Source: a virus. Taken from it: a DNA stretch of 64,000 nt. Made by a program: the position numbers and the translations under genes. The notes beneath the pieces were generated by a model that saw only the letters and a program-made list of their open reading frames with translations, was not told where the DNA came from and did no database searches. Positions 31,122 to 61,828 of this stretch are shown here, piece by piece. Every line of letters starts with the position of its first letter. Position 1 is the first letter of the stretch. Location: the UHGV virus genome UHGV-1380027. One strand, given 5' to 3'.

Positions 31122-31123
31122 TT

Positions 31124-32022: not shown

Positions 32023-32024
32023 AT

Positions 32025-32665: not shown

Positions 32666-32695
32666 AGTATGGCTTTCTAGATGGAGACTGACTAA

Positions 32696-33180: not shown

Positions 33181-33209
33181 TTGACATCAACACCAGATTT
33201 ATATATATG
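33181..33209 (+). promoter_or_regulatory. sigma70-type promoter candidate (TTGACA-N17-TATATG)
   Basis: TTGACA 33181-33186 with AT-rich -10 region 33202-33209; in the 165-nt gap before 33242 gene. Confidence 0.4.
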
Positions 33210-33241
33210 ATTATCTCATCAACCAAGCAGAGGAGATTGTC

Positions 33242-33649
33242 ATGGATAATCTTGCAAGTGTGAACGTCGAAATTGTTAAACTAAAGTTCTTGGGCTTTCG
33301 AGACCCTAATTCTCTAACAGCTATACTGATGGATACCCACTTCACACCTGGGAAAGAGTACACTGCCTTCCGTTATATTTGTGGAGATCACGAATCGGCC
33401 TATAGTGTGAATACAAACCTCGGCGAGGGGTATTTCATCAAAGATATCACAGATCACTTGTGGGGTATGTGGGAATTGGTGGAAGAAGAGAATAAATCCC
33501 TTCCCAAAGAGATTTGGGTGCACACCTTCCACACAGGTAAGTTCGGAGGTACGGAACATAAGTCTATCCACTATGAAGAAGAAAGTGCCATCAAACAACA
33601 AGCTGTGCTTGGTGGATCTGTAGAAAAATTTGTTAAATGCGAGGACTGA
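33242..33649 (+). CDS. hypothetical protein (135 aa)
   Basis: SD GAGGAG 6 nt upstream of ATG. Confidence 0.55.
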   Translation: MDNLASVNVEIVKLKFLGFRDPNSLTAILMDTHFTPGKEYTAFRYICGDHESAYSVNTNLGEGYFIKDITDHLWGMWELVEEENKSLPKEIWVHTFHTGKFGGTEHKSIHYEEESAIKQQAVLGGSVEKFVKCED

Positions 33650-33652
33650 GAA

Positions 33653-33853
33653 ATGGCTGATTTTTGTAAAGATTGCTCTGAAGAGTTGTTTGGCTTTGAC
33701 TGCAAAGATTTGGAAGGTCTGATCACTGAGGATCAGTGGAAGGAAGGCTATGCAGCACCTGTTATTTGTGAAGGTTGTGGCTATACCTATGTTGACCATA
33801 AAGGTAAGCGCGTCAAGCCGTCTGAAGATGGGGCATGTTGGGAGTATTACTAA
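33653..33853 (+). CDS. small zinc-ribbon-like protein (66 aa)
   Basis: CKDC ... CEGCG cysteine pairs; SD GAGGA. Confidence 0.5.
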   Translation: MADFCKDCSEELFGFDCKDLEGLITEDQWKEGYAAPVICEGCGYTYVDHKGKRVKPSEDGACWEYY

Positions 33854-33866
33854 CTATAAAAAGAAA

Positions 33867-33891
33867 GGGGCCATTTGGCCCCCCTTTTTTT
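33867..33891. terminator. bidirectional rho-independent terminator between convergent blocks
   Basis: GGGGCC-ATTT-GGCCCC stem-loop flanked by AAAAGAAA upstream and TTTTTTT downstream. Confidence 0.7.
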
Positions 33892-33903
33892 ATCTACTAC
33901 TTG

Positions 33904-43079: not shown

Positions 43080-43664
43080 TTAGAGGGTAGGTCGTTCCGG
43101 GAAGAAAATGTCAGGGGCTTTAGATGTATCTATTTCAAGAAGTTTTACCCTGTACATTTTCAAATCTCTGATGTTGCGTTTTTGGTCATCAGTAAGATCG
43201 TATTCAAGGTCAATCATGTCTTGATAGGCACCAATTCTAGCAGTAGCCCAAGCAAGTTCTGTCTCTATGACACCCTCTGCCTGTTGAACAAAGAATTCAT
43301 TGTCTGTGACAAATTCATCACCAACTAAACGCAAAGCGTCGTGGTGGAGCATAATGTTTTCTGGTACCTCTTCTTTTTTGGCGATAACCACACGAAGACC
43401 TGGAGCAGGCCACAAGGCATCAGGTTCTTCTGTAGATGTCTTAAGAATACCCTTCTCGTCAACAAGTAAGAAGATACAGCCGGGATTTTCTTGTCGCAGT
43501 GTTCGTGATTGCACATACCAATCGCCATCATCATTACGTAAAAAATATCCAGTGTATGCTGTGTAATCCTCAACCTCCTGAGGAGTCAGCTCCTTGGTCT
43601 CCTTGTTGGTGTAGTATTCGCCAGATCCCGGTTGGTAAAGTTTAAACTCTTGAAGTATTTTCAT
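43080..43664 (-). CDS. tail fibre assembly protein (Tfa / P2 gpG-like), 194 aa
   Basis: C-terminal signature DLKMYRVKLLEIDTSKAPDIFFPERP resembles Tfa consensus (WKxYRVxLxRVDTSxAPDIxWPxxP); directly downstream of fibre gene. Confidence 0.7.
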   Translation of the reverse strand: MKILQEFKLYQPGSGEYYTNKETKELTPQEVEDYTAYTGYFLRNDDGDWYVQSRTLRQENPGCIFLLVDEKGILKTSTEEPDALWPAPGLRVVIAKKEEVPENIMLHHDALRLVGDEFVTDNEFFVQQAEGVIETELAWATARIGAYQDMIDLEYDLTDDQKRNIRDLKMYRVKLLEIDTSKAPDIFFPERPTL

Positions 43665-44731: not shown

Positions 44732-46804
44732 TTATGAGAAGTCTGGCGGAACAACATCTTCTACATACCCTTTCAGAGCAACCTGCCCCATATGCAGAAC
44801 AGTAGAATCTCTGGCGGTAACAGTGATGCTGTCAGACATTACTTGCGGGTATGCCCACACATACTGTTTTACCTCAGGGTATCTATACTCTATGGTTGCC
44901 ATGTTTCCGCAAATACATCTCCATAAAAATTCTTGGTAATTCCTGGTTGGGTCGTAGCCATATACCGGAGCAAGCTCTTTGCTAGGAACGAACCCTGCAA
45001 GGTATTGTATTTCAGACGGTTTCCAACCTAACTTAACGATAGGTATGTTTACAGACTCTTTTGCCTTTTCAATACCTCCCTGCATCACCCAATCGTAGCA
45101 CTCAGTGCAGAAGAAATCAAGAGCACCTGCTTCCTTTTTATATTGGTCAGCAAGGTTCAGTTTTTGCGTAAGCTCGGTTTCCATAATAGTGGGGAAAAAC
45201 AGTAAAGCTGTCATCTGAGCCGATGCAGCGTGTGCTTTTATTGCCTTTGAAATGGCTGCAATACGAGCGCCAAGCTTACCACGACAAAATGCTACATACT
45301 TGTCATAAACACCGCCAGTTTTAGGATCGTCAATAGTCCCAATGTCTAGTGCATATTCACCAGTCTCATCATAAAACGCCTGCTTTGTAGGGTAGTCATA
45401 AATACAAGGCTTACGAGTATCGGTATTGAACCACCACCACGGTTCACCAATCTGCATAATCACTGGTAGGTTGTTTCTCATAGCGGCTGATGCAAAATTC
45501 TTAAATACTGCAGTAAGGAAATTCATGCCCTCTTCAATGGTTGGAGACAGGAGGTAACTACAAGGCGTATAGCCTGTTTTAGCATAGTTATCGTTCCAGT
45601 CTCTCTGGGTCCATTCCAACGGACAGGCATCGCTATAAAGCTCAAAGCTTACAGACTGCATAACGTCGAAGTCATGTCGTTTGGCATTGTACATAAAATC
45701 ATCATGCCATTTATAAGCTGCAGCGTTTAGAGCTCCTGTTTTGTTTATAGACCATTGGGTTCCTGACCATGTGTAGTCATAATAATGGCTCATACCAACA
45801 TAATGGTTTATGGTTCCTGTATAGCCCAGACGCTTGATATTGCTCAACACCCTTAAAGGGGATACGTTCCACATATCGTCATATGCTGTGCAGATCCCAA
45901 CATCGTGTTCTTTCACCTGAATATTGTTAAGTTGCATCATTTTCCAGCCTGTGTCCGGCTGAAGAAGATCTAGACGCAACTCACACTCTACATTTTCCGT
46001 TCTCGGGTCTGTGCTATTACCTACCCAATCTTTAGGCATAAGTGGTATTAGAATCCTTCTCACCTGCCGAGGATCAACACCCATCATGTTGTTGTTCTGG
46101 TCCATCCCGACGCAGTCCTCGAAATCAATATGAATTTCTGCAACATTCTTATCCTCTGAGATGCTGACAGCATATTGAGCTAAAGGAACATAGATGATTG
46201 TACCATCAACAAGGTCTACAGGCATAATCATCTTTTCAGGGGTGGAGAAGTTGCTGGCATTGGTTATTGACATTCTGAACCAAAGCTTGGTGTTTCTCAT
46301 CTCGTAGTGATCATCAAATCCAATGCCGAAATGGTCATACTTGTCAACTGTTTCCCAAATGCACCCAGCCATGCCCCCATATGTTCTTGACACTAAACGG
46401 TTAATACAGCAGTTATTATCCGCAACAATACAGGTGCTTTCAGTCTGCTGTGTGGTTGTAACCCAGTATCTTGGGTGAAACATTCTCTCCTCAACTGTAT
46501 CCCAAGATATTCTGTCAAGATTCTCATCTGAAACTATTGTACATTTCGCTCTTTGTGTTCCAATCATAACCCCTTGGGAGTTTGATGAAAACTCCATAAA
46601 GAAGCTCCTTGGCAACCTGTTTGGCAATTTGTCAACAATTTCTACAGGGATCTCGATACTGGTTGCCCCAACCGGGATAGTTACATCGCCCTCAACATGA
46701 TCATAATCCCTACCCGGAACTGCAGTATCTTGAACTGTGCGGTAATGAAACCGTGCAGCCATTGTAGAGTAATCACGGTAAGGTTTAAAAACAGCTGTTG
46801 CCAT
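44732..46804 (-). CDS. structural protein with N-terminal Calx-beta-like domain (690 aa)
   Basis: HYRTVQDTAVPGRDYDHVEGDVTIPVGATSIEIPVEIVD resembles Calx-beta consensus. Confidence 0.4.
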   Translation of the reverse strand: MATAVFKPYRDYSTMAARFHYRTVQDTAVPGRDYDHVEGDVTIPVGATSIEIPVEIVDKLPNRLPRSFFMEFSSNSQGVMIGTQRAKCTIVSDENLDRISWDTVEERMFHPRYWVTTTQQTESTCIVADNNCCINRLVSRTYGGMAGCIWETVDKYDHFGIGFDDHYEMRNTKLWFRMSITNASNFSTPEKMIMPVDLVDGTIIYVPLAQYAVSISEDKNVAEIHIDFEDCVGMDQNNNMMGVDPRQVRRILIPLMPKDWVGNSTDPRTENVECELRLDLLQPDTGWKMMQLNNIQVKEHDVGICTAYDDMWNVSPLRVLSNIKRLGYTGTINHYVGMSHYYDYTWSGTQWSINKTGALNAAAYKWHDDFMYNAKRHDFDVMQSVSFELYSDACPLEWTQRDWNDNYAKTGYTPCSYLLSPTIEEGMNFLTAVFKNFASAAMRNNLPVIMQIGEPWWWFNTDTRKPCIYDYPTKQAFYDETGEYALDIGTIDDPKTGGVYDKYVAFCRGKLGARIAAISKAIKAHAASAQMTALLFFPTIMETELTQKLNLADQYKKEAGALDFFCTECYDWVMQGGIEKAKESVNIPIVKLGWKPSEIQYLAGFVPSKELAPVYGYDPTRNYQEFLWRCICGNMATIEYRYPEVKQYVWAYPQVMSDSITVTARDSTVLHMGQVALKGYVEDVVPPDFS

Positions 46805-47501: not shown

Positions 47502-48992
47502 TTAAATAGTTTGTTGGAAAGTTATATTACTTTCGTCTAGATCAAACACCTCAGTCATGTTTGCAACAATATCGTTTGTGGTGTAAGCTTCATCAGAGGC
47601 CCCCACAGGTTTGACTTGAATTACAAGTCTGTTAAATCTGCCTATTGACACAGCAGCCGATGCAGCACCAACCAATTGGATATTGTACAACGTATCTGCA
47701 ACATCCAGTCCGTTAACAACCTGCAAAAGAGCCTCTACAATGGCATCTTTTTCTGTTGTGGAAAGCGCAGCACCTGAGTAGGTAATTCTTACATCTAGGC
47801 GGTAGGTATTTGCCTTGGAGTAATAAATCCTTTCAGTCTGACCGTCTGATGTGGTAATATCGTAGAAGATATTCCCATAAGTTCTATTTGTGCAAGCTAT
47901 GGTTTGATACAGCGCCTGACAGATATCCTCTGTTGCACCACCAAACACCACCACTTGAAACTTATAAGGTGGTATACCTTTCGCATCCGTTTTATCGGTG
48001 TTGTTAGAGAACACTCTTACTTTCTCAACACCTTTCACCTCGCTTACAGCGCTAAGGATTGCAGGACGGGTAGCTTTAGATGTCAGCTGTTTAGTGCTGG
48101 AAGCTCTTAAGCGATACTCAGAGTCTTTCTCAACATCCCTGCCCTCATTGAATCTTTCTCGGTTGGTAAGCTTGATAAATCCACTGGGAGTAGGTGACAT
48201 TGTTGTCACGGTTTCTGCCCCTCTTGACAGCTCACCAGCCTCGTTAGCGATAACATCTAGGGTGATAGTTCTTTCCCCTACAATCGGGGATACTCTGAAA
48301 TCTACCCTGCTATTAAGTCCAACTTGATAAAGATTCGAATTGTACCCTATCCACAACGTCCCTGTCAACATATCTATCTGAATTAAATCATCATTCAGCA
48401 GGGTTGTATTATCGACAATGAATTGCTTAATCTCGCCGTAAAAGCTTGGCAAATCAGAAGAGTCCAGAGCCTTATCTGTTAAAACCAGACTTTTTGTTTT
48501 GATACTTCCGTCTGTCTGGTTGGTAATTTGAAAGTTGTATTTCCCAATTCTTAGGTCTGGAGCGTTTATTCTGTGAGCAATAAGATTTCCCGCCACCTGC
48601 ACATCGTTGCTAAGAACAAAGTTGCCACTGTCCAGCGTATAAGTTTTGGAATCATAAATCATATTGTACGGCACAGTTGTGTTGATTGTCAACTGGCAGG
48701 TACCTGATGATTTAGAACGGCCTCTTCGGTAAATACCCTGTCTTCCAAGAAGCTCATCTAGGTAAATACCTTCTGCCCCGTACAGCGTCTGCGATGCGTA
48801 TACAGATGCTGCCATAAGAATAAGTTGATACTCTCGCTCGTTGAAGATAGTGGTCAGCTTATCTGCAACGGAGTTACTCTGTACGTTGAAGTTTTCGCCA
48901 AAAGCACGGATCAGGCTTTGCTTAGTTTCAACGATTAGGTCATTTAGGGTTGGTATAACGAAACCAGCCTCTGTCAATCCATACTTAGCCAC
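47502..48992 (-). CDS. baseplate J-like protein (496 aa)
   Basis: N-terminus YGLTEAGFVIPTLNDLIVETKQSLIRAFGENFNVQSNSV matches the characteristic N-terminus of baseplate J family proteins. Confidence 0.55.
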   Translation of the reverse strand: MAKYGLTEAGFVIPTLNDLIVETKQSLIRAFGENFNVQSNSVADKLTTIFNEREYQLILMAASVYASQTLYGAEGIYLDELLGRQGIYRRGRSKSSGTCQLTINTTVPYNMIYDSKTYTLDSGNFVLSNDVQVAGNLIAHRINAPDLRIGKYNFQITNQTDGSIKTKSLVLTDKALDSSDLPSFYGEIKQFIVDNTTLLNDDLIQIDMLTGTLWIGYNSNLYQVGLNSRVDFRVSPIVGERTITLDVIANEAGELSRGAETVTTMSPTPSGFIKLTNRERFNEGRDVEKDSEYRLRASSTKQLTSKATRPAILSAVSEVKGVEKVRVFSNNTDKTDAKGIPPYKFQVVVFGGATEDICQALYQTIACTNRTYGNIFYDITTSDGQTERIYYSKANTYRLDVRITYSGAALSTTEKDAIVEALLQVVNGLDVADTLYNIQLVGAASAAVSIGRFNRLVIQVKPVGASDEAYTTNDIVANMTEVFDLDESNITFQQTI

Positions 48993-49096: not shown

Positions 49097-52000
49097 TTAG
49101 CCATGAGACTCGTTCCAAGGTCCCTGGAAGCTAGAGTTTGAACGACTAACTATTACGGTTGGACAAGATATTGTAACTCCTGTCACGCTTGACCTTGGTG
49201 TGTATATCTCGACGATAATGTCTATGGTTTGTTCACCGAGACCAGTTATCCCTACCGCACACATGCCGTTGTTGTCGTTTCCGTACTTCTTGCCTGCAAG
49301 GATTTGATGTCCGGCTATCCAAACGTTGAGCTGGGAGCCAGACAAGGTTCCGTTTAGTTTAAAGAAGAATGTTACGTTCTTACCTTGCCCTGAAACGTTG
49401 TCCACATATCTCCACCTCCAACGGCAAACCCCCTGCTGCGAGTTATATACCGGAGGACAGTCACCATAGGTCCTATGTGCAACGATTGCACCTTCGAACT
49501 GGTCAGCACGGATAACGGAAGCTTCTACACGTCCACGGAATGTACCTCCTGTTGCATCTATGGTGCCTCTAAAGCTACCATTATTGGCATAAACATCCCC
49601 ACGGAAAGTGCCACTGGTAGCGTTAACTGCCCCTGTGAAGTTACCTGCACTAGCGTTGATGTTACCTTTCACCCACACATCCATAAACTGGGCGTGTCCG
49701 TTCTTGTTAATATACCAACCGTATTTATGGTACCCGTTGCCATCGTAGTTGTTAGACGAAATTTCTTGTGCAATCTTGGCAGAAGAGATCGTCCCGTTCT
49801 CTATAAAAGCATCTTTCAAGAACGCTTGGTTGTTCTTGATTGCGAAAGCAAGGGTTGCTGTTCCATTTCCGGGGTTGTATACCGCAAAGTTGTTTGCACT
49901 AACCATGAAGTATGATTGAACTTGGCCTCCAGAGCCTTCCATGCCCAATTGGATACCTGCCACATACTTATTCCCTGCGGAGTCTACCTGTATTTTTGTG
50001 CCCCATTGAGCATTTACTTTGCCCTCTAAGTCTGTCACAGCCTTAGATGTTGTAGCTACTGCAGCTCTAAGCTCTGACACATCACCGACATCATCAATGA
50101 TCTCCTGCTTAGCAACAGCAAGTTCTTGACGAATAGCTGACGCTGTGCCGTTAATAAGATCCACGGTTGCTTTGTTGGTATCGGAGATTGTAGCGTCCAG
50201 TGCTGTTTTTGTGGAGGTCAGCTTACCATCCAAATCCTTAATCGCCTGTTTGTTGGTAGAAATTTCTCCACGTGCAGAAGTTATCTGCTCCGACAGTGCA
50301 GAGGTTTTCTGATTCAACAAATCTGTGGTGGCCTTGTTGGTATTGGCAATCAAGGTATTGAGATCAGTTTTTGCGGTAGTTATCTTACCATCAAGGGTGG
50401 TATAGTTCTTAGATACCGTCGCGTTTGTCTGACTGATCTTTTGATCCAGAGTTTCAGATGTCCTGTTGAGAAGATCCACTGTCGCCTGGTTGGTGCTTAA
50501 GATGCTTGCATCAAGTTCCGTTCTCTGAGTATTGATCTTGCCATCTAGAGTTTTATCTCCGGCAAGGTATCCGCTCTCCACACCACTTATTTGTTCTACC
50601 AACTCCCCTTTGGCTGCAACCAATTTCTCGTCTAAAGCCTCTGTCTTTTTGTTCAGAAGATCAGTGGTTGCTTTGTTGGTTGTCTCGATCAGGGATGCCA
50701 GTCTTCCACTTTCAGTGTTCAGATCGTTGGTGAACTTGTTCTGTGCAGCAACAAGTTTCCTATCCAGAGCTGTGATATTACCATTGACATCCTCAAACTT
50801 CTGAGTTGTCTCTGCAACTACTGCACCTATCCTATCTCCAAGTTGTTGGAATGCCTCATCTACCCTTCCGTCCATGTACTTGTTAAGCTCTGTGACACGA
50901 TTTTCAACCTCCTCGATAGAGGAATCTAAAGTGCTCATCAACTCTTTATAAGTTTCTGTCTTTTTAAATTCAGCATCTATCTGAGGCATCAAATCTTCAA
51001 TAGAGGTGTAGCAGCGTGCAGCGCATTCTACAAACTGAGAACTACCAAAAGCGTTTGTGGTTCGAATATACCAATAATAAATCTTATCGTTCTGCAGACC
51101 TTCAGATGTCCAAGTTGAACCAACACCCATACGGGTAGCTTTTGAAGTAACGGTTGCATCACTTGTGTCCGGCAACCTTGTCATACCAGATGTCCAAAAA
51201 TCATACTGGGTGCTTACACTTGCTAAGTCCCTGCTGTGCGGAATCAAGGTGATAGCAAAGTATCCCTGCTTAACTTCTACAGAAACAGGAGCTTCAGGTG
51301 CTTGAATGTTGAACTCGCAGTAGGCTTCTGGAGATACACCACCCTTATAAGATGTTGCAACCACGGTTGCTGTGTATGACCCTTTGGTCAATCCTTCTAC
51401 GCGGACAAACTGCTCGACTGTTTGTGCTGTCCAAATAATCTCTCCGTTCTTTCTTACCTGCACAATATTTTGAGCATAAGTTCCAACGTTGTCCCAAGCC
51501 AAAACACCATGAGTTACTTCCCCAGCTTGAAGAACAGAGTATCTGAAGTTTTGCGGTTGAGCTACACCGGACGGGGATATCGGAATATCCACATCTCCAG
51601 AATCCGGAAGTTGCCCTGTGGCATCATTCCACTCTTTAGCATCTTGACGGAGTTTTACCTTGACACCGCCCTTTTTGGTGAACTCCCATTCAAGAACCCT
51701 CATTTCTTGGCCCACTATACCAATACTTGGGAGGTCCATCGTAACGTAACGCCCAGGCTTAAATTTAAAACCCCGCATATTGCAGGTTACTTCAATAATC
51801 CTGCCAGCTCTGGCACGTCTTAAGAATATTGCGGAAACACGCTGAGCCTGATAAGGACTGGTAACAAAACGATAATCTATATCAATTATCTTTCTTTCTC
51901 CGTCCTTCTCTACCCATTCAGGTACGAACACCGATGGGAAGTCTGTTTCAGAATACCCTTTGGTTGGACTGGTGAATCTCCCAGTTATTGTGTTTGATCT

Positions 52001-52930
52001 TTTGTCGAAGGAGGCTTCAGGATAGATCTTAACCTCACCGCAAACACAGTCCTCACTCAGTGTCATTGTTGCCGGGCCATAGTATGCACCTACCAGCAGA
52101 CCGTATTTGCCAGCTACATAGCTAAGGTCTGCACCACAAGCCTTCAGCATTTCTGCCATAATACTTGCTGGTGCTTCGTCCATGTCGAACTCACCATTAA
52201 TAGTGTAACGGCGCTCACTGGTTCCGTCCGCGTTTTTTACAGCCTCGTCGCATATGTTGGCAGCTTCCTTGAAGGACTCCCAGTTGATGGTTTCGTCAGG
52301 ACATTTAAGGTACGTTCTTAGATAGTCCAGAATCACCAAGGCAGCGTTGTTGGTATACACCTCTTTACTGATACGAGGATCATAACATTTTTTACCAACC
52401 TTGACAAGTGTAACGTTTGGCAACCCAAAAGGAAACTTGTTAGGGTCAAACTTAAAGCTGGCACGTAGCCAACTGATCCCTCTACCTATCATGTCTGGTG
52501 ACCACGAAGGGCAGTGTGTGCCCATGAAAGGATCAGAGGTTTTCCTGTCGTTATGCAACTCCCACGATACCAAATCCCCATACGAGGAAATAGGATTACC
52601 GTCGATAAGTATATCTTCTATACCTTCCAAGGGATGATTGGCAAGAACAATAGCACAATGAAGGGTTCTGTCCCTGTCCTGCTCCAAAAACGCAAGCAAT
52701 CCAGATGTGCGTGTCTTCCCATACACTACAGAGCAAGGTGCAGCAGAAGATCTGAGAAGCTTTTGTCTATCTTGTGGACTTCTGTAAGATTTGTTGCCTT
52801 CGAAAATCTTATCAAGGGTTCTGGTGGTAACAGTGTTCAGGCTGTCAGCCAGAGCTGCCTTGGATGCGTTCCAGTCATAGCTCGAAGATCTTGCAGAAGC
52901 AACGATGTTATCAATCATTGCAATTGGCAT
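49097..52930 (-). CDS. large tail/host-specificity-like structural protein (1277 aa) with internal ~53-aa repeats and C-terminal GTFRG repeats
   Basis: fibronectin-III-like segment (SYTATVVATSYKGGVSPEAY), four to five coiled-coil repeat units (TNKATTDLLNKKTEALDEKL etc.), GNFTG/GTFRG/GSFRG beta repeats. Confidence 0.5.
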   Translation of the reverse strand: MPIAMIDNIVASARSSSYDWNASKAALADSLNTVTTRTLDKIFEGNKSYRSPQDRQKLLRSSAAPCSVVYGKTRTSGLLAFLEQDRDRTLHCAIVLANHPLEGIEDILIDGNPISSYGDLVSWELHNDRKTSDPFMGTHCPSWSPDMIGRGISWLRASFKFDPNKFPFGLPNVTLVKVGKKCYDPRISKEVYTNNAALVILDYLRTYLKCPDETINWESFKEAANICDEAVKNADGTSERRYTINGEFDMDEAPASIMAEMLKACGADLSYVAGKYGLLVGAYYGPATMTLSEDCVCGEVKIYPEASFDKRSNTITGRFTSPTKGYSETDFPSVFVPEWVEKDGERKIIDIDYRFVTSPYQAQRVSAIFLRRARAGRIIEVTCNMRGFKFKPGRYVTMDLPSIGIVGQEMRVLEWEFTKKGGVKVKLRQDAKEWNDATGQLPDSGDVDIPISPSGVAQPQNFRYSVLQAGEVTHGVLAWDNVGTYAQNIVQVRKNGEIIWTAQTVEQFVRVEGLTKGSYTATVVATSYKGGVSPEAYCEFNIQAPEAPVSVEVKQGYFAITLIPHSRDLASVSTQYDFWTSGMTRLPDTSDATVTSKATRMGVGSTWTSEGLQNDKIYYWYIRTTNAFGSSQFVECAARCYTSIEDLMPQIDAEFKKTETYKELMSTLDSSIEEVENRVTELNKYMDGRVDEAFQQLGDRIGAVVAETTQKFEDVNGNITALDRKLVAAQNKFTNDLNTESGRLASLIETTNKATTDLLNKKTEALDEKLVAAKGELVEQISGVESGYLAGDKTLDGKINTQRTELDASILSTNQATVDLLNRTSETLDQKISQTNATVSKNYTTLDGKITTAKTDLNTLIANTNKATTDLLNQKTSALSEQITSARGEISTNKQAIKDLDGKLTSTKTALDATISDTNKATVDLINGTASAIRQELAVAKQEIIDDVGDVSELRAAVATTSKAVTDLEGKVNAQWGTKIQVDSAGNKYVAGIQLGMEGSGGQVQSYFMVSANNFAVYNPGNGTATLAFAIKNNQAFLKDAFIENGTISSAKIAQEISSNNYDGNGYHKYGWYINKNGHAQFMDVWVKGNINASAGNFTGAVNATSGTFRGDVYANNGSFRGTIDATGGTFRGRVEASVIRADQFEGAIVAHRTYGDCPPVYNSQQGVCRWRWRYVDNVSGQGKNVTFFFKLNGTLSGSQLNVWIAGHQILAGKKYGNDNNGMCAVGITGLGEQTIDIIVEIYTPRSSVTGVTISCPTVIVSRSNSSFQGPWNESHG

Positions 52931-53367
52931 TAATACCTCCAGACATCAACAACGATAGAATCTTTCATGTCGAACATAAAGATCCCTTTATCACCTTTCG
53001 CCCAAATCTGGTTGTTCCAGAACACACCAGCGGTGAGCCCGTTCAGACCTTCGAAAATAACAATATCACCACGCTGAACCTGTTTAGGAGTATCCAGTCG
53101 AGTCAAAAAGAGATCAAAAATAGTAGGCAGATGTGTGGTTTTGAAACGAAGCATGCACCATCTCTTGCTTTCCAACTCTGTTTTATACGTTCCTTCAAAG
53201 TTAGAAAGAAAATCTGTTCCGTATTGGGCATCAACACACTTAGCCGCAAAAGTGCAGCAATCGTGGAATCCCCATTCAAACGGGACGGTGACTTCTTCGT
53301 CAAACACTTTCCACAATCTTTCTTGCCAGTCCACTAAACGAGGGTGTGTGCTCATTAAACCTCCCAA
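52930..53367 (-). CDS. tail-associated protein, possibly NlpC/P60-like (145 aa)
   Basis: FHDCCTFAAKC and RGDIVIF motifs; weak. Confidence 0.3.
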   Translation of the reverse strand: MGGLMSTHPRLVDWQERLWKVFDEEVTVPFEWGFHDCCTFAAKCVDAQYGTDFLSNFEGTYKTELESKRWCMLRFKTTHLPTIFDLFLTRLDTPKQVQRGDIVIFEGLNGLTAGVFWNNQIWAKGDKGIFMFDMKDSIVVDVWRY

Positions 53368-53921
53368 ATGATCGGGCGGCTTGCCACCTGATCCACATAT
53401 TTAAAAAATCTGTCATTATCGTTTCTTGAGCTATGGCTCTCCTCTGTGTATCGATAAGGAAAACCTCTTAACCAGCTGTTGAAGATGGAAGATATGGATA
53501 TGGACAAAGCACTATTCTCCCCTGTCTGAATAGCCATGTCTGTTATAAGGCCGTCAAACAAGCCATTGGTTGTAACAGGTAAACCATTCTCCATAGCTGT
53601 GATATACAACGTGGCACGACAACCCGAATACTCCGTCTTCAGCAGATCACCTACATACTTGGGATCAAACCCGTTCAATGTTGCTACCACAGACCCAAAG
53701 TTGGTGGCATCTTTCTCAGATACAGCAGTCAATGTTGCTGATCCACCTATCCCTATAAAATGCTGCCCCTCAATCACCACAACACCAGTGCCTGAGCACA
53801 CCCTGACAGTTCCTGTTGGCAGCTCTAGCTTTGCGGCAATTAAGATCTCAACACTATCAAGCTCTAGCTTTTCAAGAAATAAATTATCTAATGGCGCTCT
53901 TATCATCTTAGAAATCCTCAA
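53355..53921 (-). CDS. hypothetical tail protein (188 aa)
   Basis: co-oriented ORF within tail module. Confidence 0.4.
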   Translation of the reverse strand: MRISKMIRAPLDNLFLEKLELDSVEILIAAKLELPTGTVRVCSGTGVVVIEGQHFIGIGGSATLTAVSEKDATNFGSVVATLNGFDPKYVGDLLKTEYSGCRATLYITAMENGLPVTTNGLFDGLITDMAIQTGENSALSISISSIFNSWLRGFPYRYTEESHSSRNDNDRFFKYVDQVASRPIIWEV

Positions 53922-54501
53922 AAAAGTTGATAACTATATTATCACCTTTCTGCATAGCATCAACCTTTTGCTTAATCTTATAGAGATCCCTGATATGAAA
54001 TCTACCCTTCGGAGATTGAGTTATTATCTTCATAGTATCCCCTGCGGCAATAGGTTTTCTAAGTCTTGGTGATATGTTTATAACAGCTGCCCCCACACCA
54101 TCACTTCGCACTGAGGATGTCACAACTTTCAACTCATCATTGACAGATATTTTATCCCCAGCCCTGACTATATCTCTGTTCGGTTCCCAACCAACCGTCT
54201 TCAAAAAATCGTCATTACCAGTTGGTCCTAGAGCGATTGGTTCATTGGAAGTAACTGAATGACCATAAGCCTTGATAAGAAAAATGTTTCCATCTTTGTA
54301 AACCTGATCAACAAAACTTTTAAGCTCCAATAGCTGGGACTCACTTATATTGGAAACCGTCAAAGTTCCTTTCCAGTTGGGCGTGGCATAGGTTACTTTT
54401 TGCGTCTTACCTGTAAACGGGCTTTTAAACGTAACAATATCTGCCAGCAACTCCAATCTAATATCTGGAAGATATCTAGGTCTTTCCCATAAAAACATCA
54501 T
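53908..54501 (-). CDS. hypothetical tail protein (197 aa)
   Basis: co-oriented ORF within tail module. Confidence 0.4.
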   Translation of the reverse strand: MMFLWERPRYLPDIRLELLADIVTFKSPFTGKTQKVTYATPNWKGTLTVSNISESQLLELKSFVDQVYKDGNIFLIKAYGHSVTSNEPIALGPTGNDDFLKTVGWEPNRDIVRAGDKISVNDELKVVTSSVRSDGVGAAVINISPRLRKPIAAGDTMKIITQSPKGRFHIRDLYKIKQKVDAMQKGDNIVINFFEDF

Positions 54502-54596: not shown

Positions 54597-54929
54597 TTAA
54601 AGTGCTTCCAAGGTAGATACTGATGGGTCGAACATGTTCAACCTTATCGGATCTACAATTTTTCCGCTTTTAGAGATGATATTTTCTGCATCTTCGTCTA
54701 GAGCCAGAACGTTGACATAAAACAATTCACTTTTCTCGCAAACCGGGTAGACAACCATGTTGCCAAACTCATCCTCGGCCTCATAAGTGTCTTCAGTTTC
54801 TGTGTAAATGAACCCGACAACCTCTACAAGAAGGGTGTTTTGCAACACCTCATTCTCGTAAAAGCCGATTTCGTCCATGAAACCGTTAAAATCCTCCCTA
54901 CCAGTAAACCCAAGGGTAAAAGTATTCAT
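54597..54929 (-). CDS. hypothetical acidic protein (110 aa), possible fibre/spike chaperone
   Basis: ORF coupled to end of tailspike-like gene (stop/start overlap). Confidence 0.4.
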   Translation of the reverse strand: MNTFTLGFTGREDFNGFMDEIGFYENEVLQNTLLVEVVGFIYTETEDTYEAEDEFGNMVVYPVCEKSELFYVNVLALDEDAENIISKSGKIVDPIRLNMFDPSVSTLEAL

Positions 54930-57900
54930 TATTCAACACTCTCCATCATAAGCTGGGTGTCGGTCAATGCAGAGTTCCAAACTCTTACATCTTTAATATG
55001 ACCAAACAAATGTCTTTCACCTGTCGCCGTTTGACCTCCGAGACGGATGAGAGCGCCTCCTGCCAGGAATTCCCAAGAAGATTGCGTTTCCGTACTCACC
55101 AATCCGTTAGCAAAAGAGCAGGTTTTACCGTCATCTTTTATCCTGAACCCAATTTTCAATTTACGTGTTTTAGCCATCTCATAGACACGTCTGTTTGAAC
55201 CGCCAATATCACAATATGGATAACCATCTTCTGCAATATTTGCTGCAGAGCCAAATCCCATGATAAATGCAGCACCTGATTGGTGGCCCTCTGTATCAAT
55301 AACCCTAGGAGCTGCGTTAGGAGCTTTTCCCCAACCTCTCCAGTTGGCATCCACCGTAGCGGCGATGGTGAACGGTCTAGGTGCTAAATTATCAGTCATT
55401 GGGAATTTACAAAGGTCTGCTGCCCTAGTCACTGGTGAAGACCCTGTAGGGATAAACGAGGACTCACAAGATCCTAACTCGAACTGAGGTATTGCGACGT
55501 CAACCCAATCCCCTACGGCATGTTGAGAACCATCCGGTGGGGCAATCTGGAACTGGCACCCAATATTCATGTCAGAGTCCACTGCCTCAAACGTAGCAAC
55601 AACTCTTATCCAAGCAGGTCCGGCTGTTTGCCATCTCTCAGCTTTTACTTTAATTCTCCCAGCTGCACCACCTGTTGTTTTAACTTCAAGTGTTGACAGG
55701 TTAACATAGGCATCACCCTGGAATACTGTGGTAGATCCGTTATACATGTCGAATCTTACACGCAGTCTCTGGTGAGCTTTACCACCTCTTGCAATAATAG
55801 ACCCAGTACAAAATTTCTCAGCGCCTGTTACATCTGCACCACGGGTGGCTGGAACTGTAGCCAGGTTTAACGCTGTTGTTTCTACACCGGATACGTTGCT
55901 TACTGTAAATCTTGCACCTTTTGTTCCGTTAGTGTTTGTTACAGTGTTACCGACCGTAATCTGTGACTGGGCTCCCCATTTGCTCGGGTCTTCACTGTTA
56001 AGCATCAGATTTGTCCTTTGACCTTCAATGAGCAGCCCATCTCTTTCGAAACGTGGTTGGTTTGCTTGTGCAACAGCCATAACACCGCGCTTAGTGAAAT
56101 AGGTTGCGGTAGAAGGTCTGGAGAAGATCATCTCCCCCTCACCTAACACAGGTTTCAGGTTAGAGGTTAAAGGTAGCCACAGGTCTGGCATAACTGGGGC
56201 AGTTGTACTTTCTGGGAAGCTAGTTCTCTTCCAAGGGCTCCAGTTCATTCCACTTCCAGTGTTATTATAATACCTTTCCCACGTCCCACCAAGATACATT
56301 TTATATATCTGGACACACCCAGTACCCTCGTTGGCAGAGTTTCTAAGCACGATCAGCGTACCAGCCATCTGCTGTCCTGGTGGATAGTGTCTTTCCGCTG
56401 TGGCGTTGGCATTTGCCTCTTGATGGTAAATACCTTCGCGATCAGCTTTGTAATCGTTAAGGTCACTAGTACCCAACCCTTGACCACGGTGCTGAATAAC
56501 TTTGTTCCACGCTCTGTGGTTACCCTGCTCTATGGAACGGGTGTACAGCTGATCTAAACGGCCTGCCATCTGGAAAGCATAGTTTCCAGAAAATGCCACA
56601 GACAACCCGCCAACAACCATTGAACCTTCAGGTCCGTTGACATTGCCAGCCAGTATTTTGGACGGATTATTATTCCCGAACTGATTGTTCCAATCTGCAC
56701 CAGTATGACATACAAAACCACCCGGTGCTGAGAAAGTACCATCTTTGTTGAAATTGTAGAATCTGTGAGCAGAACCTACAACATCACGAACAATAACTTG
56801 ACCAGCTTCTGGAGTAGATCTGAACTCTGCCTGGCCTTTGAGGCCAGCACCATTGCCGCATTTAGAGGTAAATGTACCGTTAGTCAGATCCTCTGTCCCA
56901 TCTGATGCACACTGGAATCCTGCATTAGAGAATAACGCCTTTCTAGGACTGCTGTAGCACAAATAGTCAATACCGTCTGCCCATAGCTCGACTTTCGGCA
57001 TGTTCATTTTGCTCATCACTGCATAGCGTTCAGCAGTGCCTATATAGTGCCACTGTGTGCCGCCGCCAGTGTAGAACCCAGAGGTGCCTTTGAAGTCAAC
57101 AATAGGTCTGGTGTTAGTAATGTTATCTCCAAGAACAGCAAGATTCAAGTCAGCTGACTGGAGAGGTGAAACGAACTTAACACCGTCCTGATTGTTTGTT
57201 ACAGAGCCGACCTGATAATCTTGCTCTCTGGTAAACACTTCGACAACATTTCTACTCGCGTATATGCTGACAGGGAAAGCACGAGCCTCCACATAGAAAG
57301 CAACATACTCTTGTTTACCCCTTGTTGGAGCAACCATCCCAAGAATTGCTTTTTCATTCTGGTAGAAATTTACTACCCCGTAGAAAGAGTCTCCTCTGTC
57401 TGTCCATCCTCCAGTTCTATAGTGACACTGTAAGGTAGCGCAGTTCATAGGGTCATTTCCAGATGACGATCTGGTAACTATGGTAATATCAGTGCCAGTT
57501 GCTGGAGCATAGTACGGATCTGTTCTAACGATGATAGGGTAGTATTTCCCATCTTCCATTCCTGCGGTTCTTGGCAGTGTTAAGAAGTCTTTTACACCTG
57601 CTGCTATAGGAACTTTGAACAGATTCTGAGCATCTGCTAAAGTTGTAGCCCCTGTGCCGCCTTGCTCTATAGCAAGAGGTTGCCACGAAGCTGTTTGTTG
57701 GTTCCACATACCCCAACGGCCTGTTGCATCAAGCTGCAAGTACCCTGCTGTGTTTAAATCATCTCCGGCACGGATAACTGTTCTTGTTGGGTTGTTTGCC
57801 TCCAGGTGTTTAAATTCGTCACGAAGTGCTATTCTTTTTGTTGTTGCTACACCGTTGGTTACTGCAATGGTATACATGGCTCCGGAGGTAGCGCCACGGA

Positions 57901-58525
57901 AAATGCCATCAACAGTTGTAGTATCACGACGAGATACCACACCGTTCAGAAATTTTTCACCCGCCGCTTCAGAAGGGTAGTTAGTAGTTCTTCCCTCTTC
58001 AATAACTGCAGGACCAACAAAGTTGACAAGGTGAATAACATCGCCTACAGTATGCACTGTGCCAAAATCTACCCGCTGTGCAAGTGCTTTAGCATCGTTG
58101 GCTGTCTGAACAGTAACATCCATTACATCCTGGACAGACTGCCCTTCGGCTGTCATGATCATAGATGCGCCAATGGTAGACTCCAGCTCCTCCCTTAAGG
58201 ACGGATCTGTATATACCATCCACGCAGCGTCAGTAATCCCACCGTCAGAATATGGTGAAGACAGTGCAGGGACAGTGTGTGGAAATTCGCCTTTCCAACG
58301 CAGGTATAGATCTTCCTCTTCGAAGTAGGCAAAATCCATTGGGCCGTTTAACTTACCACCTTCCTTAAAGGAGATTACATGAGAAACAGTCCCATCCACA
58401 TGGACAACATCGCCAATTTTTACACGACGGGTCAGGTCTGGTTGTTGAACAACCAGGTAATCATCCTCTGTCACTGCGGTAGTGGCAGGAAGAGATTCAA
58501 TTCTGACAACTTTAATATCAGCCAT
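54929..58525 (-). CDS. tailspike-like protein (1198 aa) with N-terminal anchor domain
   Basis: N-terminus (LPATTAVTEDDYLVVQQPDLTRRVKIGDVV ... FKEGGKLNGPMDFAYFEEEDLYLRWKGEFP) homologous to ORF 61160..61828; long Gly/Thr/Asn-rich region. Confidence 0.5.
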   Translation of the reverse strand: MADIKVVRIESLPATTAVTEDDYLVVQQPDLTRRVKIGDVVHVDGTVSHVISFKEGGKLNGPMDFAYFEEEDLYLRWKGEFPHTVPALSSPYSDGGITDAAWMVYTDPSLREELESTIGASMIMTAEGQSVQDVMDVTVQTANDAKALAQRVDFGTVHTVGDVIHLVNFVGPAVIEEGRTTNYPSEAAGEKFLNGVVSRRDTTTVDGIFRGATSGAMYTIAVTNGVATTKRIALRDEFKHLEANNPTRTVIRAGDDLNTAGYLQLDATGRWGMWNQQTASWQPLAIEQGGTGATTLADAQNLFKVPIAAGVKDFLTLPRTAGMEDGKYYPIIVRTDPYYAPATGTDITIVTRSSSGNDPMNCATLQCHYRTGGWTDRGDSFYGVVNFYQNEKAILGMVAPTRGKQEYVAFYVEARAFPVSIYASRNVVEVFTREQDYQVGSVTNNQDGVKFVSPLQSADLNLAVLGDNITNTRPIVDFKGTSGFYTGGGTQWHYIGTAERYAVMSKMNMPKVELWADGIDYLCYSSPRKALFSNAGFQCASDGTEDLTNGTFTSKCGNGAGLKGQAEFRSTPEAGQVIVRDVVGSAHRFYNFNKDGTFSAPGGFVCHTGADWNNQFGNNNPSKILAGNVNGPEGSMVVGGLSVAFSGNYAFQMAGRLDQLYTRSIEQGNHRAWNKVIQHRGQGLGTSDLNDYKADREGIYHQEANANATAERHYPPGQQMAGTLIVLRNSANEGTGCVQIYKMYLGGTWERYYNNTGSGMNWSPWKRTSFPESTTAPVMPDLWLPLTSNLKPVLGEGEMIFSRPSTATYFTKRGVMAVAQANQPRFERDGLLIEGQRTNLMLNSEDPSKWGAQSQITVGNTVTNTNGTKGARFTVSNVSGVETTALNLATVPATRGADVTGAEKFCTGSIIARGGKAHQRLRVRFDMYNGSTTVFQGDAYVNLSTLEVKTTGGAAGRIKVKAERWQTAGPAWIRVVATFEAVDSDMNIGCQFQIAPPDGSQHAVGDWVDVAIPQFELGSCESSFIPTGSSPVTRAADLCKFPMTDNLAPRPFTIAATVDANWRGWGKAPNAAPRVIDTEGHQSGAAFIMGFGSAANIAEDGYPYCDIGGSNRRVYEMAKTRKLKIGFRIKDDGKTCSFANGLVSTETQSSWEFLAGGALIRLGGQTATGERHLFGHIKDVRVWNSALTDTQLMMESVE

Positions 58526-58560
58526 TCTTTCTCCTGAAAGGGGGCAAACAGCCCCCTATG

Positions 58561-61158
58561 TTAAAGGTACAATCCACGGTATTGAGCATAAAGTCCCAGA
58601 CCGCGAAGGATTTCGCCAGAGTGATAGCCTACCGGATCAGAAACTGCCCAGCAGCCGTTTAAAACATTATCCCCGTTAATGAAGTGGTGCTTTTGCAGTA
58701 ACTTCACACAGGCTTCTACAACAATATCTATTTGAGGTATTGTCTCTGAATACCCGCAAAGACCTAGCCAGCAGCAACCTGCAAGCCATTCACCTACCAC
58801 CCACATCCTGTCTCCTCTGTCCTGATAAGAGTATCCTCCAGAGGTGTTAAAGTCTGTAGGTAGATTTCCTGAATGAGATGACCGGAATCTGTTGAGGAAC
58901 CATGCCCATTTCTGGCAGAACAGGAACAGTCTTTCATCAACAGGTTCTTTATGTTTCTTGAGCTCATATATTGTGCGGCACGCAGCAACAAAAGATCTTG
59001 ACTGGAGCTTAGAGTTATCTACCATCTCCCACCAACCAGTCAACCCTTCATTACCTCTCTGCCATACATAACGTGAGGCAACTGGACCCTCTGTCTTAAA
59101 TGTATTGTTATACCAGACTTGAGAGTCATACAGAAAGCCTATTGTATTTGACAATCTATGGCGGTCTATGTTTTCTGCCCCCATGCAGTAGACTGCTGGG
59201 TATTGCATACCAGGATAGGGCCAACTTGGCCTTTCCTCTAAGAGATAATTTTCCTTATCTATCACCTTTCCAGCAGGGAACACACCCGGCGTGTGCCTGT
59301 ATGCACCTTGCTTGTAGTTTCTGACATAACAATCGCCAACCTTAGCGGTTGATTCTGTCTTGCTTGCCATCCATACACTAAACCAAATTAGGTAAGCATC
59401 TCTATCTGCAACATAAAATTGCGGTAGCGTGTTGACGCAATACAGATCAAACAAGCCATTACCTATCTGCCTGTCGCTCAGACTGAAATCTACAGAGGTG
59501 ATCCCTTTGGTGTTAGCAAAGAAAGGTTTAATCTCCTCTTCGGTGTGATGAGGTTGTGTAGGGTCTAGTTTAAAATCTCCCAGAGTAAGAGTTTCTGTTA
59601 TCCATTGTCCATTAGTGGCATATAGATCAGCATACCATAACCAACGGTCTTTGTCAAGAAATTTGACCCTTACCATCTCATCATCTGATCGATAAGTTAC
59701 TGAGTTTAAAGAAATCTCTCTTCCAAAATTGAAAGTTACCTTGCCTCTTACTATGTTGCAACGGGTGAAGTTGTCAGAGTGGTTGTAAATGTCGGTATCA
59801 TACTGCATACTAACACTAGCGCCACCGCTTACGGCAATGTTTTCCTCTTTTGGCAAGAGATACGGGTTACCGTCTTTACCAACCACCTCTACAAAATCAG
59901 TAACCTTGGCAACTGTTTCTGTTACCTCTGCCCCTCCAAAAGGTACACCTATTCTGTACTGTTTTTTGTTATTGTTGCCATCATTAAGGATGAAATGTGG
60001 CTGGAACAGAACCCCTTCTCCTCCGAAATTCATAACAATTTCAGCATCTCTGCCTATTTTGTATGTAGTCCCTTTTTGGATTATTTCGCAAGGCTGGCGT
60101 GCGTTCATTCTAAAATTGATATATCCGTCACTATCCCTACTCATGACAGGTACTGTTCCTGCAACTAGACAAGTACCATCTGTGAACGGGGCCTTAATCA
60201 ACGTGGTCTTTCTGAACAGCTTGTCGTAGGCATTTATATCACTAAAATTAAGCAACTTATTGTAAGACTGCTTAAACGCGGTGTAATACTTTTCCTCACC
60301 TGTCAGGGTGTAGAGTTGATAACAAGCGTCACACCACATCTCTTCCCCATCTAACTCTGGGGCTTGATTGTCTGCAACCACGTTTATAGGATTTACAATT
60401 ACAGGGGATCCAGCAGGTATCACCGATCCGCCCTGCTCTTGAGGCAATCTCACACAATAGGTAACCTTGTGGTTGCCTGTAACACCCTTATCTTGCAGTT
60501 GGATTGTGCCGAACTCTGCAGACGTATGACCACTGTCGGCTATGCTACCGTTGGCCCAATAGCGGTTACCATCCCATGCTATATACCACTCAACCAACCA
60601 ACTTAATCCGGAAGTTGTCCAATTAGGATTAGCATCTGTGCCGCCGTAAACATCAGAGTCTACAGTGTTTCTTCCTAAAACACCGTTATACGCCTGAAAA
60701 GCCTTGTCCAAGTATTCTCCCCATGTCGGGGATCCTGCTGGGATTTTTCCTCTACCTTTGTTAAAAGACACAACCACATCTTTAAACCCACCATGTGATG
60801 GAACTCCATCTGTGGATAACGGGTAGTGGGACAATCTTTGCATTTTACTTTCTACTGCATATACTCCCAGAAGATGACTGTTGTAGGCTTCCCAAGCCTC
60901 TTTGGCCCTGTCCAGATAAAAATCGCTTTTTGATGCCCTGTATGCCTCAATGTATCCCAGAATCAACACAGCTTGGGACTCATGCATTGCCCAATCATTG
61001 TTTATCTTACTCCCTGACCAACCTGACGCTATAAGTCCATCCTGGTTTACCAGTTTGTTCTGTGTAGGGAGATTGGTAATACCTGTGTTGTTATCGAGGC
61101 ACTTCCTGTGCCCCTCGATCATCTGAAATACGTTATCAATGTTGTGTTGAATACGCAT
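58561..61158 (-). CDS. large tail-associated protein, possible carbohydrate-active enzyme (865 aa)
   Basis: own SD AGGAG; follows the stand-alone anchor-domain ORF with only 1 nt between stop and start; no motif confidently recognised. Confidence 0.4.
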   Translation of the reverse strand: MRIQHNIDNVFQMIEGHRKCLDNNTGITNLPTQNKLVNQDGLIASGWSGSKINNDWAMHESQAVLILGYIEAYRASKSDFYLDRAKEAWEAYNSHLLGVYAVESKMQRLSHYPLSTDGVPSHGGFKDVVVSFNKGRGKIPAGSPTWGEYLDKAFQAYNGVLGRNTVDSDVYGGTDANPNWTTSGLSWLVEWYIAWDGNRYWANGSIADSGHTSAEFGTIQLQDKGVTGNHKVTYCVRLPQEQGGSVIPAGSPVIVNPINVVADNQAPELDGEEMWCDACYQLYTLTGEEKYYTAFKQSYNKLLNFSDINAYDKLFRKTTLIKAPFTDGTCLVAGTVPVMSRDSDGYINFRMNARQPCEIIQKGTTYKIGRDAEIVMNFGGEGVLFQPHFILNDGNNNKKQYRIGVPFGGAEVTETVAKVTDFVEVVGKDGNPYLLPKEENIAVSGGASVSMQYDTDIYNHSDNFTRCNIVRGKVTFNFGREISLNSVTYRSDDEMVRVKFLDKDRWLWYADLYATNGQWITETLTLGDFKLDPTQPHHTEEEIKPFFANTKGITSVDFSLSDRQIGNGLFDLYCVNTLPQFYVADRDAYLIWFSVWMASKTESTAKVGDCYVRNYKQGAYRHTPGVFPAGKVIDKENYLLEERPSWPYPGMQYPAVYCMGAENIDRHRLSNTIGFLYDSQVWYNNTFKTEGPVASRYVWQRGNEGLTGWWEMVDNSKLQSRSFVAACRTIYELKKHKEPVDERLFLFCQKWAWFLNRFRSSHSGNLPTDFNTSGGYSYQDRGDRMWVVGEWLAGCCWLGLCGYSETIPQIDIVVEACVKLLQKHHFINGDNVLNGCWAVSDPVGYHSGEILRGLGLYAQYRGLYL

Positions 61159-61159
61159 C

Positions 61160-61828
61160 TTAGATAGCTCCTGCGATGATCAATGCCCCGTACCAAGTTA
61201 GTCCATTATCATATGTTTCCAACTTGAAAATGTCTGTTGCACCAGCTGTAAATGTTAGGATAGGATCTCTTCCGTAGGCCCATTTAACATTGTCAGGCCA
61301 ATAAACTTTGTTACCACCAGAGGTCTGCGTTATGCATACAGTTATAGTTCTTGCCACTCCGTCGAGCCCTTCTGTTTGATTTTCAAAAGAGATTGTGGTA
61401 TTTGAAGTGAGCCGAACTTTAAACGTGTCTGCAACGTCAAGATCCATGTCAAGTTGACCACCAATAGAGCCGTAATCAACTATCCTACCTGAAGAAGTTG
61501 CAGCAAGCTCTCCAAAAACAGACCATGCTTTTGCAGACACACCTCCGGCACCCTCTACAGTGGAATCTGGGAGGATTATTTTAGGATAATCTCCATTCCA
61601 TGTGTAGTAGCGCTTAGTTTCCGGATCATAAGCAAAATCCTTCTTGCTCTTAAGATAACCGCCTTCTGTGAAATAAACTATTTTAGTAATGCTAAGATCA
61701 TTGACAACATCATCAATCTTAGCCTTTCTTGTCCCGTCAGTCTGGTTGACAACCAAGAAGTCATCACTCAAGACTGTTTCTGCATCTTCAAGATCTGGGA
61801 TTGGTATTGTAGGATAAGCTACAGCCAT
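61160..61828 (-). CDS. stand-alone tailspike N-terminal (anchor) domain protein (222 aa)
   Basis: homologous to N-terminus of 54929..58525 (IPDLEDAETVLSDDFLVVNQTDGTRKAKIDDVV ... FTEGGYLKSKKDFAYDPETKRYYTWNGDYP). Confidence 0.5.
   Translation of the reverse strand: MAVAYPTIPIPDLEDAETVLSDDFLVVNQTDGTRKAKIDDVVNDLSITKIVYFTEGGYLKSKKDFAYDPETKRYYTWNGDYPKIILPDSTVEGAGGVSAKAWSVFGELAATSSGRIVDYGSIGGQLDMDLDVADTFKVRLTSNTTISFENQTEGLDGVARTITVCITQTSGGNKVYWPDNVKWAYGRDPILTFTAGATDIFKLETYDNGLTWYGALIIAGAI

Follow-up and report, generated by a model that had tools for sequence, protein, structure and literature searches.

Modular fibre anchors and adaptor-mediated fibres are both established in tailed phages, the latter in CBA120 (TSP1-4), G7C (gp66/gp63.1) and the K1E/K1-5/SP6 group, where a virion-anchored protein carries a separately encoded enzyme. 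In rV5- and phi92-type phages, three sets of lateral fibres are described, with several fibres co-expressed as a 'Swiss army knife' on the nanoscale, and the assignment of genes to these fibres has been stated to be unclear (PMC8594841). A 2026 electron cryomicroscopy (cryo-EM) study of phi92 lists gp140 as a fibre candidate only and never mentions gp141 (PMC13450770). Here we analyse the orthologues of these two proteins, of 222 and 865 amino acids (aa), in a 64,000-nucleotide stretch of the virus genome UHGV-1380027 (hereafter the window), together with the gene for a 1198-aa fibre that follows them. All three minus-strand genes lie where an earlier note on this DNA had placed them (Table 1). 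From genes and structure predictions we propose, with moderate confidence, that the adaptor logic also applies here, with the 222-aa protein serving as an adaptor that carries the 865-aa protein as the head of a two-component fibre.

Nucleotide identity assigns the stretch to an rV5-like Vequintavirus, of which it covers the baseplate and tail-fibre region: the 8.1 kb surrounding the fibre genes share 98.3% identity with Escherichia phage S127 BCL3 and 93-98% with the listed Vequintavirus genomes. Direct orthologues are phi92 gp140, gp141 and gp143 and Bas49_0024-0026, which stand in the same order after the hub, spike and sheath-initiator genes of the rV5-like/phi92-like locus found in Vequintavirinae and Stephanstirmvirinae. 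The 222-aa protein corresponds to phi92 gp140, GAP31_221 and BASEL Bas49_0024 ('sialidase domain protein'), and the 865-aa protein to phi92 gp141, GAP31_222 and Bas49_0025; identity to phi92 gp140 and gp141 is ~35-41% at the protein level. Within the genus the pair hardly varies. The same 669-bp and 2598-bp genes are annotated in the two Vequintavirus relatives whose annotation we read, both proteins are 95-100% identical in ~120 phage records (119 for the 222-aa protein), and the 865-aa protein is 95-99% conserved among Vequintavirus genomes. More than 100 deposited rV5-like genomes already contain near-identical genes, annotated as tail-fibre proteins. The shared anchor and the gene pair thus belong to the ordinary, conserved equipment of a well-known phage group and are no artefact.

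The 222-aa and 1198-aa proteins begin alike, as the earlier note had seen. Their N-termini are 38% identical over 99 aa (E=2e-18, BLASTP), and both proteins exceed the 25-bit gathering cut-off of PF18668 Tail_spike_N, the smaller with 40.4 bits (E=3.1e-10, residues 51-104) and the larger with 40.6 bits (E=2.7e-10, residues 46-103). BLASTP and a profile scan of every six-frame open reading frame (ORF) in the window found no third copy. Aligning the small protein with its orthologues splits this module in two: a ~45-residue peptide with the pattern x-I-x-x-L-P-x-x-x-x-V-x-x-x-D-[YF]-x-V-x-x-Q-x-D-x-T-[RK]-K, followed by Tail_spike_N. The peptide is common to the 222-aa and 1198-aa proteins, GAP31_221, phi92 gp140 and the phi92 endosialidase gp143, and a profile of these five recovers GAP31_223, which was outside the profile, at E=1e-16. 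Its two parts also occur singly, since phi92 gp140 has the peptide without Tail_spike_N and phi92 gp151 has Tail_spike_N without the peptide. Each of three phage lineages checked has exactly two peptide carriers per fibre region, namely the small protein and a large fibre or spike encoded one to two genes later; phi92 differs in that its second carrier is endosialidase gp143, as opposed to the 1198-aa fibre here. These sequence patterns suggest that the peptide plugs its carriers into a common scaffold. Sequence search matches the Tail_spike_N region of the 222-aa protein to the same region in the solved tailspikes 9occ, 8x8m, 6nw9, 4qnl and 4oj5, and the domain also occurs in CBA120 tailspike N-termini and in G7C gp63.1. 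With docking peptide and Tail_spike_N, the 222-aa protein has an N-terminal virion-attachment module, one trait of the adaptors in branched receptor-binding complexes of the CBA120, G7C and K1-5 type.

The rest of the protein was overlooked when the earlier note took it for a stand-alone anchor. In its C-terminal half lies a separate domain, which goes together with the downstream gene; the 222-aa protein has three parts, namely docking peptide, Tail_spike_N and a C-terminal beta-sandwich. AlphaFold2 predicts the sandwich with confidence: the block-mean predicted local distance difference test score (pLDDT) exceeds 90 for the greater part of residues 121-222 and falls once, to 67, at residues 151-160; prediction of the N-terminal half is poor. 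In 11 very different phages, the domain keeps the invariant columns Q..G.N..W.....W / D..D.G..W.G and an invariant L. A profile built from it and ten phage homologues retrieves many proteins annotated with PF26209 (E=1e-13 to 1e-20) that have the same conserved W/P/D/G columns. An exhaustive profile search returned 38,953 cluster representatives with a domain of this type (E≤0.001), and in most of the 150 matches listed it sits at the extreme C-terminus of proteins of ~130-600 aa. PF26209 has no recorded function. We found no paper mentioning the family, the phiTE cryo-EM paper is silent on its namesake, the phiTE_241 protein, and a PDB sequence search with the domain profile gave no match. 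A Foldseek search aligned the 222-aa model over its whole length with the Pa223 capsid spike (E=1e-4), with the Solidus gp83 tailspike in its N-terminal part (E=1.4e-4) and with residues 1-335 of CBA120 TSP4 (E=8e-4), the last being the N-terminal region to which other tailspikes attach. The 'sialidase domain' label was rejected as evidence of a sialidase; it probably derives from the Asp-box/BNR-like motif, which is sub-threshold (E ~0.12 in homologues).

The 222-aa and 865-aa genes are tightly joined. Their junction reads gcAGGAGctatcTAAgATG, in which the stop codon TAA, one base (g) and the next ATG follow each other directly, and the 865-aa ORF has its own AGGAG Shine-Dalgarno sequence, as the earlier note had described. 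This sequence lies nine nucleotides upstream of the ATG, and the 865-aa ORF is in a different frame from the 222-aa ORF. The pairing extends far beyond the genus. Phage records matched by tblastn numbered 515 with the 222-aa query and 525 with the 865-aa query, and the counts ran in parallel by genus (222-aa/865-aa: Escherichia 241/243, Salmonella 99/101, Vibrio 58/62, Erwinia 33/33). Outside Vequintavirinae, the small protein was matched in its C-terminal domain only. We inspected ten diverse loci, spanning myoviruses, jumbo phages and a T7-like podovirus: phi92, GAP31, Kaonashi (the T7-like podovirus), SPN3US and PBECO4 (both jumbo phages), SE131, PKM.Hi.22.6, Vibrio phage K493, IntR (Rosemountvirus) and Pistou (Kolesnikvirus). 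In all ten, the gene for a protein of 156-269 aa with this domain at its end precedes that for an 865-aa homologue of 916-1157 aa, at spacings from an 8-nucleotide overlap to a 3-nucleotide gap. The N-termini of the small proteins vary with virion type: Tail_spike_N in the rV5-like phages and GAP31, a T7 tail-fibre N domain in Kaonashi and a short peptide only in phi92. A metagenomic relative has Mtd_N in this place. At the level of sequence, the pairing follows the C-terminal domain, whatever the N-terminal anchor.

The partner varies as well. In seven metagenome loci a small homologue is followed, at 0-10 nucleotides, by a GDSL/SGNH esterase (one locus), a Laminin_G_3 protein (two), a SPRY protein (one) or a protein without family assignment (three). 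Where a family can be assigned, the downstream partner is usually of enzyme or lectin type. A constant C-terminal domain combined with a variable anchor and a variable adjacent partner is the pattern expected of an adaptor carrying a separately encoded head. We found no paper describing this consistent succession of a PF26209-type domain and a payload gene across very different phages. No natural ('Rosetta stone') fusion of the small domain to the 865-aa family turned up among the few long homologues retrieved. As a separate observation, four payload proteins that follow PF26209-type proteins on metagenome contigs (L013:6526, L015:6483, L017:5011 and L020:5422) are mutually unrelated and start similarly, with MLGxxRxxL; by sequence this start could be a short docking peptide.

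For the 865-aa protein, the earlier note had left the choice between a beta-helix and an alpha/alpha barrel to structure prediction, and the AlphaFold2 model came out as the barrel. Helical hairpins at residues 59-95, 269-319 and 654-860 make up a predicted (alpha/alpha)6 barrel of glycoside-hydrolase type, which is split by beta-sandwich insertions at residues ~100-240 and 330-613. All homologues in the family begin directly with conserved barrel sequence and have no recognisable anchor. The barrel fold is shared, in prediction, with the (alpha/alpha)6-barrel glycoside hydrolases (GH8, GH48, GH76, GH88 and GH105), whereas sequence identity to them is 8-13%, no family hidden Markov model matches and the barrel is interrupted by the large insertions. 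We put the chances that the barrel is catalytic or solely glycan-binding close to even.

We therefore frame the adaptor-and-head proposal as follows. Docking peptide and Tail_spike_N would fix the 222-aa and 1198-aa proteins at equivalent positions of the baseplate or a fibre scaffold. The 1198-aa protein would bring its own distal domains, while the C-terminal beta-sandwich of the 222-aa protein would be a docking platform that binds the anchor-less 865-aa protein encoded by the tightly coupled next gene. The 865-aa barrel would then form an enzyme-like or glycan-binding head acting on a surface glycan by binding or cleavage. That this glycan is conserved is probable from the 95-99% conservation of the pair in the genus and from the remark of the BASEL authors that most of the fibre locus is invariant (PMC8594841). 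The binding of the two proteins to each other, their virion attachment site, any glycosidase activity with its substrate and any effect on host range are what we infer. Compared with the adaptors of CBA120, G7C and K1-5, the 222-aa protein would be a tiny one that lacks any enzymatic part, and its cargo would be a predicted (alpha/alpha)6 barrel as opposed to a beta-helix trimer. The docking domain that we propose for it is a beta-sandwich of the PF26209 type, which may or may not correspond to the T4 gp10-like/XD docking domain recognised on adaptors. The split adapter-plus-enzyme format suggested by the earlier note thus survives in part: a conserved two-gene unit and a predicted enzyme-type barrel lacking an anchor agree with it, and the reduction of the 222-aa protein to an anchor does not.

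Virion data from another phage may bear on this proposal. In phage S144, gp16 (21 kDa) and gp17 (111 kDa) were both found in virions by mass spectrometry, and HHpred suggested a hydrolase for gp17 (PMC7432712). These proteins are presumably homologues of the 222-aa/865-aa pair, because ORF17 is treated there as the equivalent of the SE4/SE13 'tail fiber' gene and the SE13 'tail fibers protein' is a tblastn match of the 865-aa protein. An O177 'proteomics' paper contains no virion mass spectrometry.

Several points weigh against the proposal. In the phi92 cryo-EM study, gp140 could not be fitted into the unassigned fibre II density (PMC13450770). The link to PF26209 comes from our own profile search rather than from Pfam's own model: P0007, a 99%-identical copy of the 222-aa protein, is flagged with PF18668 only, without PF26209, in the precomputed Pfam list. 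Because near-identical copies lack this flag, we regard the domain in the window as a divergent relative of PF26209. Domains of this type often end longer fibres and are sometimes repeated in large proteins, and a distal receptor-binding knob would look alike. The 865-aa protein gave no sequence match in Pfam, NCBIfam or PDB and falls in no CAZy-type family. Its AlphaFold2 model is of moderate quality (mean pLDDT 71) and was built on a 7-sequence alignment, shallow because the single-sequence homologue search gave only 4-6 matches.

The nature of the head can be read differently. It is possible, if somewhat doubtful, that the 865-aa protein has kept the barrel fold only and is structural or glycan-binding, so that the pair would add binding specificity and no depolymerase. 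The fold does occur in epimerases, terpene cyclases and the viral tail protein SSV19 VP4, no glycoside hydrolase family is matched at the sequence level, and the strong conservation within Vequintavirus fits a conserved target better than variable capsules. Six acidic residues (E60, D270, D678, E732, D783 and E849), however, do not vary even among homologues with as little as 24% identity and are located within barrel helices or where these begin, which argues for an enzyme, as do weak, sub-threshold GH76 and GH127 matches of the podovirus homologue and the hydrolase call for the presumed S144 counterpart (PMC7432712).

The main rival to the adaptor reading concerns the pair itself and is, in our estimate, rather unlikely. 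It holds that the two proteins are independent components: the 222-aa protein would be a complete short fibre with the beta-sandwich as its receptor-binding tip, the 865-aa protein would attach to the baseplate or another fibre by itself, and their adjacency would reflect co-regulation. The typical last position of PF26209-type domains in fibre-like proteins of many lengths, and their repetition within single proteins, fit such a tip. The whole-length likeness to the Pa223 spike, a capsid protein according to its PDB title, fits a self-contained spike, and 'tail protein I' or 'tail formation protein GpI' is the name given in some database records to homologues of the 865-aa protein. Against this rival, the 865-aa family has no recognisable anchor and starts at the barrel in all homologues. 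Strict adjacency also persists across podoviruses, myoviruses and jumbo phages of differing virion architecture while the N-terminus of the small protein changes to suit, and the downstream gene in metagenomes often encodes a product too small for a free-standing fibre (235-259 aa, lectin-like).

Far less probable is the idea that the 222-aa protein stays outside the virion and serves the 865-aa protein as a chaperone in assembly. Its gene is small, lies immediately upstream of a large fibre-type gene and is translationally coupled to it, yet the protein carries the virion-attachment module common to bona fide fibres, the presumed S144 counterpart gp16 was found in virions (PMC7432712), and known fibre chaperones in the window, such as Caudo_TAP, sit downstream of their fibres. 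That the split is a sequencing error or a pseudogenised fused tailspike gene, as the single base between stop and start codons might hint and as the earlier note had allowed for, can be dismissed: close relatives have the same ORF lengths and near-identical proteins, all ten distant phages keep the genes separate with differing junctions, and the second ORF has another frame and its own AGGAG. A place for the pair in the core baseplate wedge, considered from its position after the gp25-like gene, was rejected as well, as the wedge genes are elsewhere (the Baseplate_J gene in the window; gp145/gp146 in phi92, PMC13450770) and the pair stands at the tail-fibre position in the T7-like podovirus.

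The second carrier of the docking peptide, the 1198-aa fibre, is 91-95% identical to Bas49_0026 (1478 aa) apart from a 280-aa gap. The junction of this 280-residue in-frame deletion lies near position 57646, at a repeated W-G-x-W-N...W-x-P-L...G-G-T-G-A motif. It is spanned by 1 of 115 matching phage records, that of S127 BCL3 (host O157:H7), and the window therefore carries a rare short allele. The suggestion that this protein is a depolymerase-type, beta-helix spike found no support: its C-terminal part matches only a gene transfer agent (GTA) head-spike-fibre-type domain and, below threshold, a concanavalin-A-like (Laminin_G_3) domain. Pfam and NCBIfam sequence scans gave no beta-helix family match, and a PDB sequence search returned N-terminal matches only, with no solved relative beyond the shared module.

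Two tailspikes, as the earlier note had counted, also fall short of what this locus encodes. On the minus strand, hub, central spike (PF18352) and gp25-like sheath-initiator genes are followed by those for the 222-aa, 865-aa and 1198-aa proteins and a 110-aa ORF. Next come a siphovirus-like set and two baseplate proteins, the first being the Baseplate_J wedge protein. An N4 gp65-like fibre, a pair of short fibres enclosing a fibre-assembly protein, a 581-aa fibre and an immunoglobulin (Ig)-domain protein of 1878 aa complete the list. This order is kept in the two relatives whose annotation was read. The position of the 110-aa ORF suggests a fibre chaperone or accessory protein. Members of the siphovirus-like set are a homologue of the distal tail protein (phrog_1302), a tail protein (phrog_2048), a putative cell-wall hydrolase of 145 aa, so labelled in the Bas49 annotation, and a lambda-J-like protein of 1277 aa that has Phage_Tail_Tip and Ig_J domains. 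The N4 gp65-type fibre has been linked to the enterobacterial common antigen (ECA)/N4-glycan receptor in Vequintavirus. Between 18 and 23 GenBank records titled 'Campylobacter phage' (MG0656xx) are ~93% identical to this rV5-like E. coli phage across the entire 8.1-kb region, and their host labels look doubtful. GC skew is positive at 26000-34000 and negative in the remaining window, in agreement with the plus-strand ORFs that form a block at 26830-32498, flanked by structural genes on the minus strand.

Table 1 Features of the tail-fibre locus, with coordinates in the window
Feature	Coordinates	Strand	Basis and remarks
222-aa small fibre protein, candidate adaptor	61160..61828	-	phrog_7760 'tail fiber protein', E=2.6e-118
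Docking peptide of the 222-aa protein, ~residues 1-45, MAVAYPTIPIPDLEDAETVLSDDFLVVNQTDGTRKAKIDDVV	61694..61828	-	Alignment with the 1198-aa N-terminus, GAP31_221, phi92 gp140 and phi92 gp143
Tail_spike_N of the 222-aa protein, ~residues 46-108	61505..61693	-	PF18668
C-terminal beta-sandwich (predicted) of the 222-aa protein, residues ~113-222	61163..61492	-	Related to PF26209 Phage_phiTE_241_C; Asp-box-like T-Y-D-N-G-L-T-W motif
AGGAG Shine-Dalgarno sequence of the 865-aa ORF	61168..61172	-	Inside the end of the 222-aa ORF; 9 nucleotides upstream of the ATG at 61158
865-aa protein	58561..61158	-	Predicted (alpha/alpha)6 barrel interrupted by beta-sandwich insertions; no N-terminal anchor
1198-aa lateral tail fibre	54929..58525	-	phrog_6578 and phrog_1419; short allele of the usual 1478-aa Vequintavirus fibre
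Docking peptide and Tail_spike_N of the 1198-aa fibre, residues 1-~105	58211..58525	-	PF18668; profile match E=2.4e-24
GTA head-spike-fibre-type domain of the 1198-aa fibre, residues 832-1036	55418..56032	-	NCBIfam NF048003, E=5.8e-21, 75.8 bits (cut-off 36)
110-aa ORF	54597-54929	-	phrog_1361 (unknown function); ATG overlaps the stop codon of the 1198-aa fibre gene
Siphovirus-like set	49097-54501	-	In a myovirus, at a place between the gp25-like sheath-initiator and Baseplate_J wedge genes
Baseplate_J wedge gene	47502-48992		
690-aa N4 gp65-like fibre	44732-46804	-	Two domains as in the N4 gp65-type non-contractile tail sheath protein, N-terminal and TIM-barrel (PF23844, PF23845)
Two paralogous short tail-fibre genes, 346 and 348 aa	41620-44719	-	Both phrog_4465
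Lambda-type tail-fibre assembly gene, Caudo_TAP	43080-43664		Flanked by the two short-fibre paralogues

A broader and more tentative reading is that small fibres ending in PF26209-type domains are widespread plug-and-play adaptors, whose interchangeable N-termini would fit them to virions of any type while the C-terminus docks the payload encoded immediately downstream, be this glycosidase-like with an (alpha/alpha)6 barrel, an esterase of the SGNH type or a lectin-type domain. In this broader reading, the gp140/gp141-type pair would form the unassigned lateral fibre, 'fibre II' of phi92. We found no paper describing such pairs as candidates for the unassigned fibre of phi92-like and rV5-like phages. 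Our analysis adds a testable assignment for a phage group used in typing and therapy: if the small protein docks the (alpha/alpha)6 protein, the pair names a candidate for that fibre. If true, it would also point to a compact adaptor domain with which heads for receptor binding or glycan degradation might be exchanged in host-range engineering.

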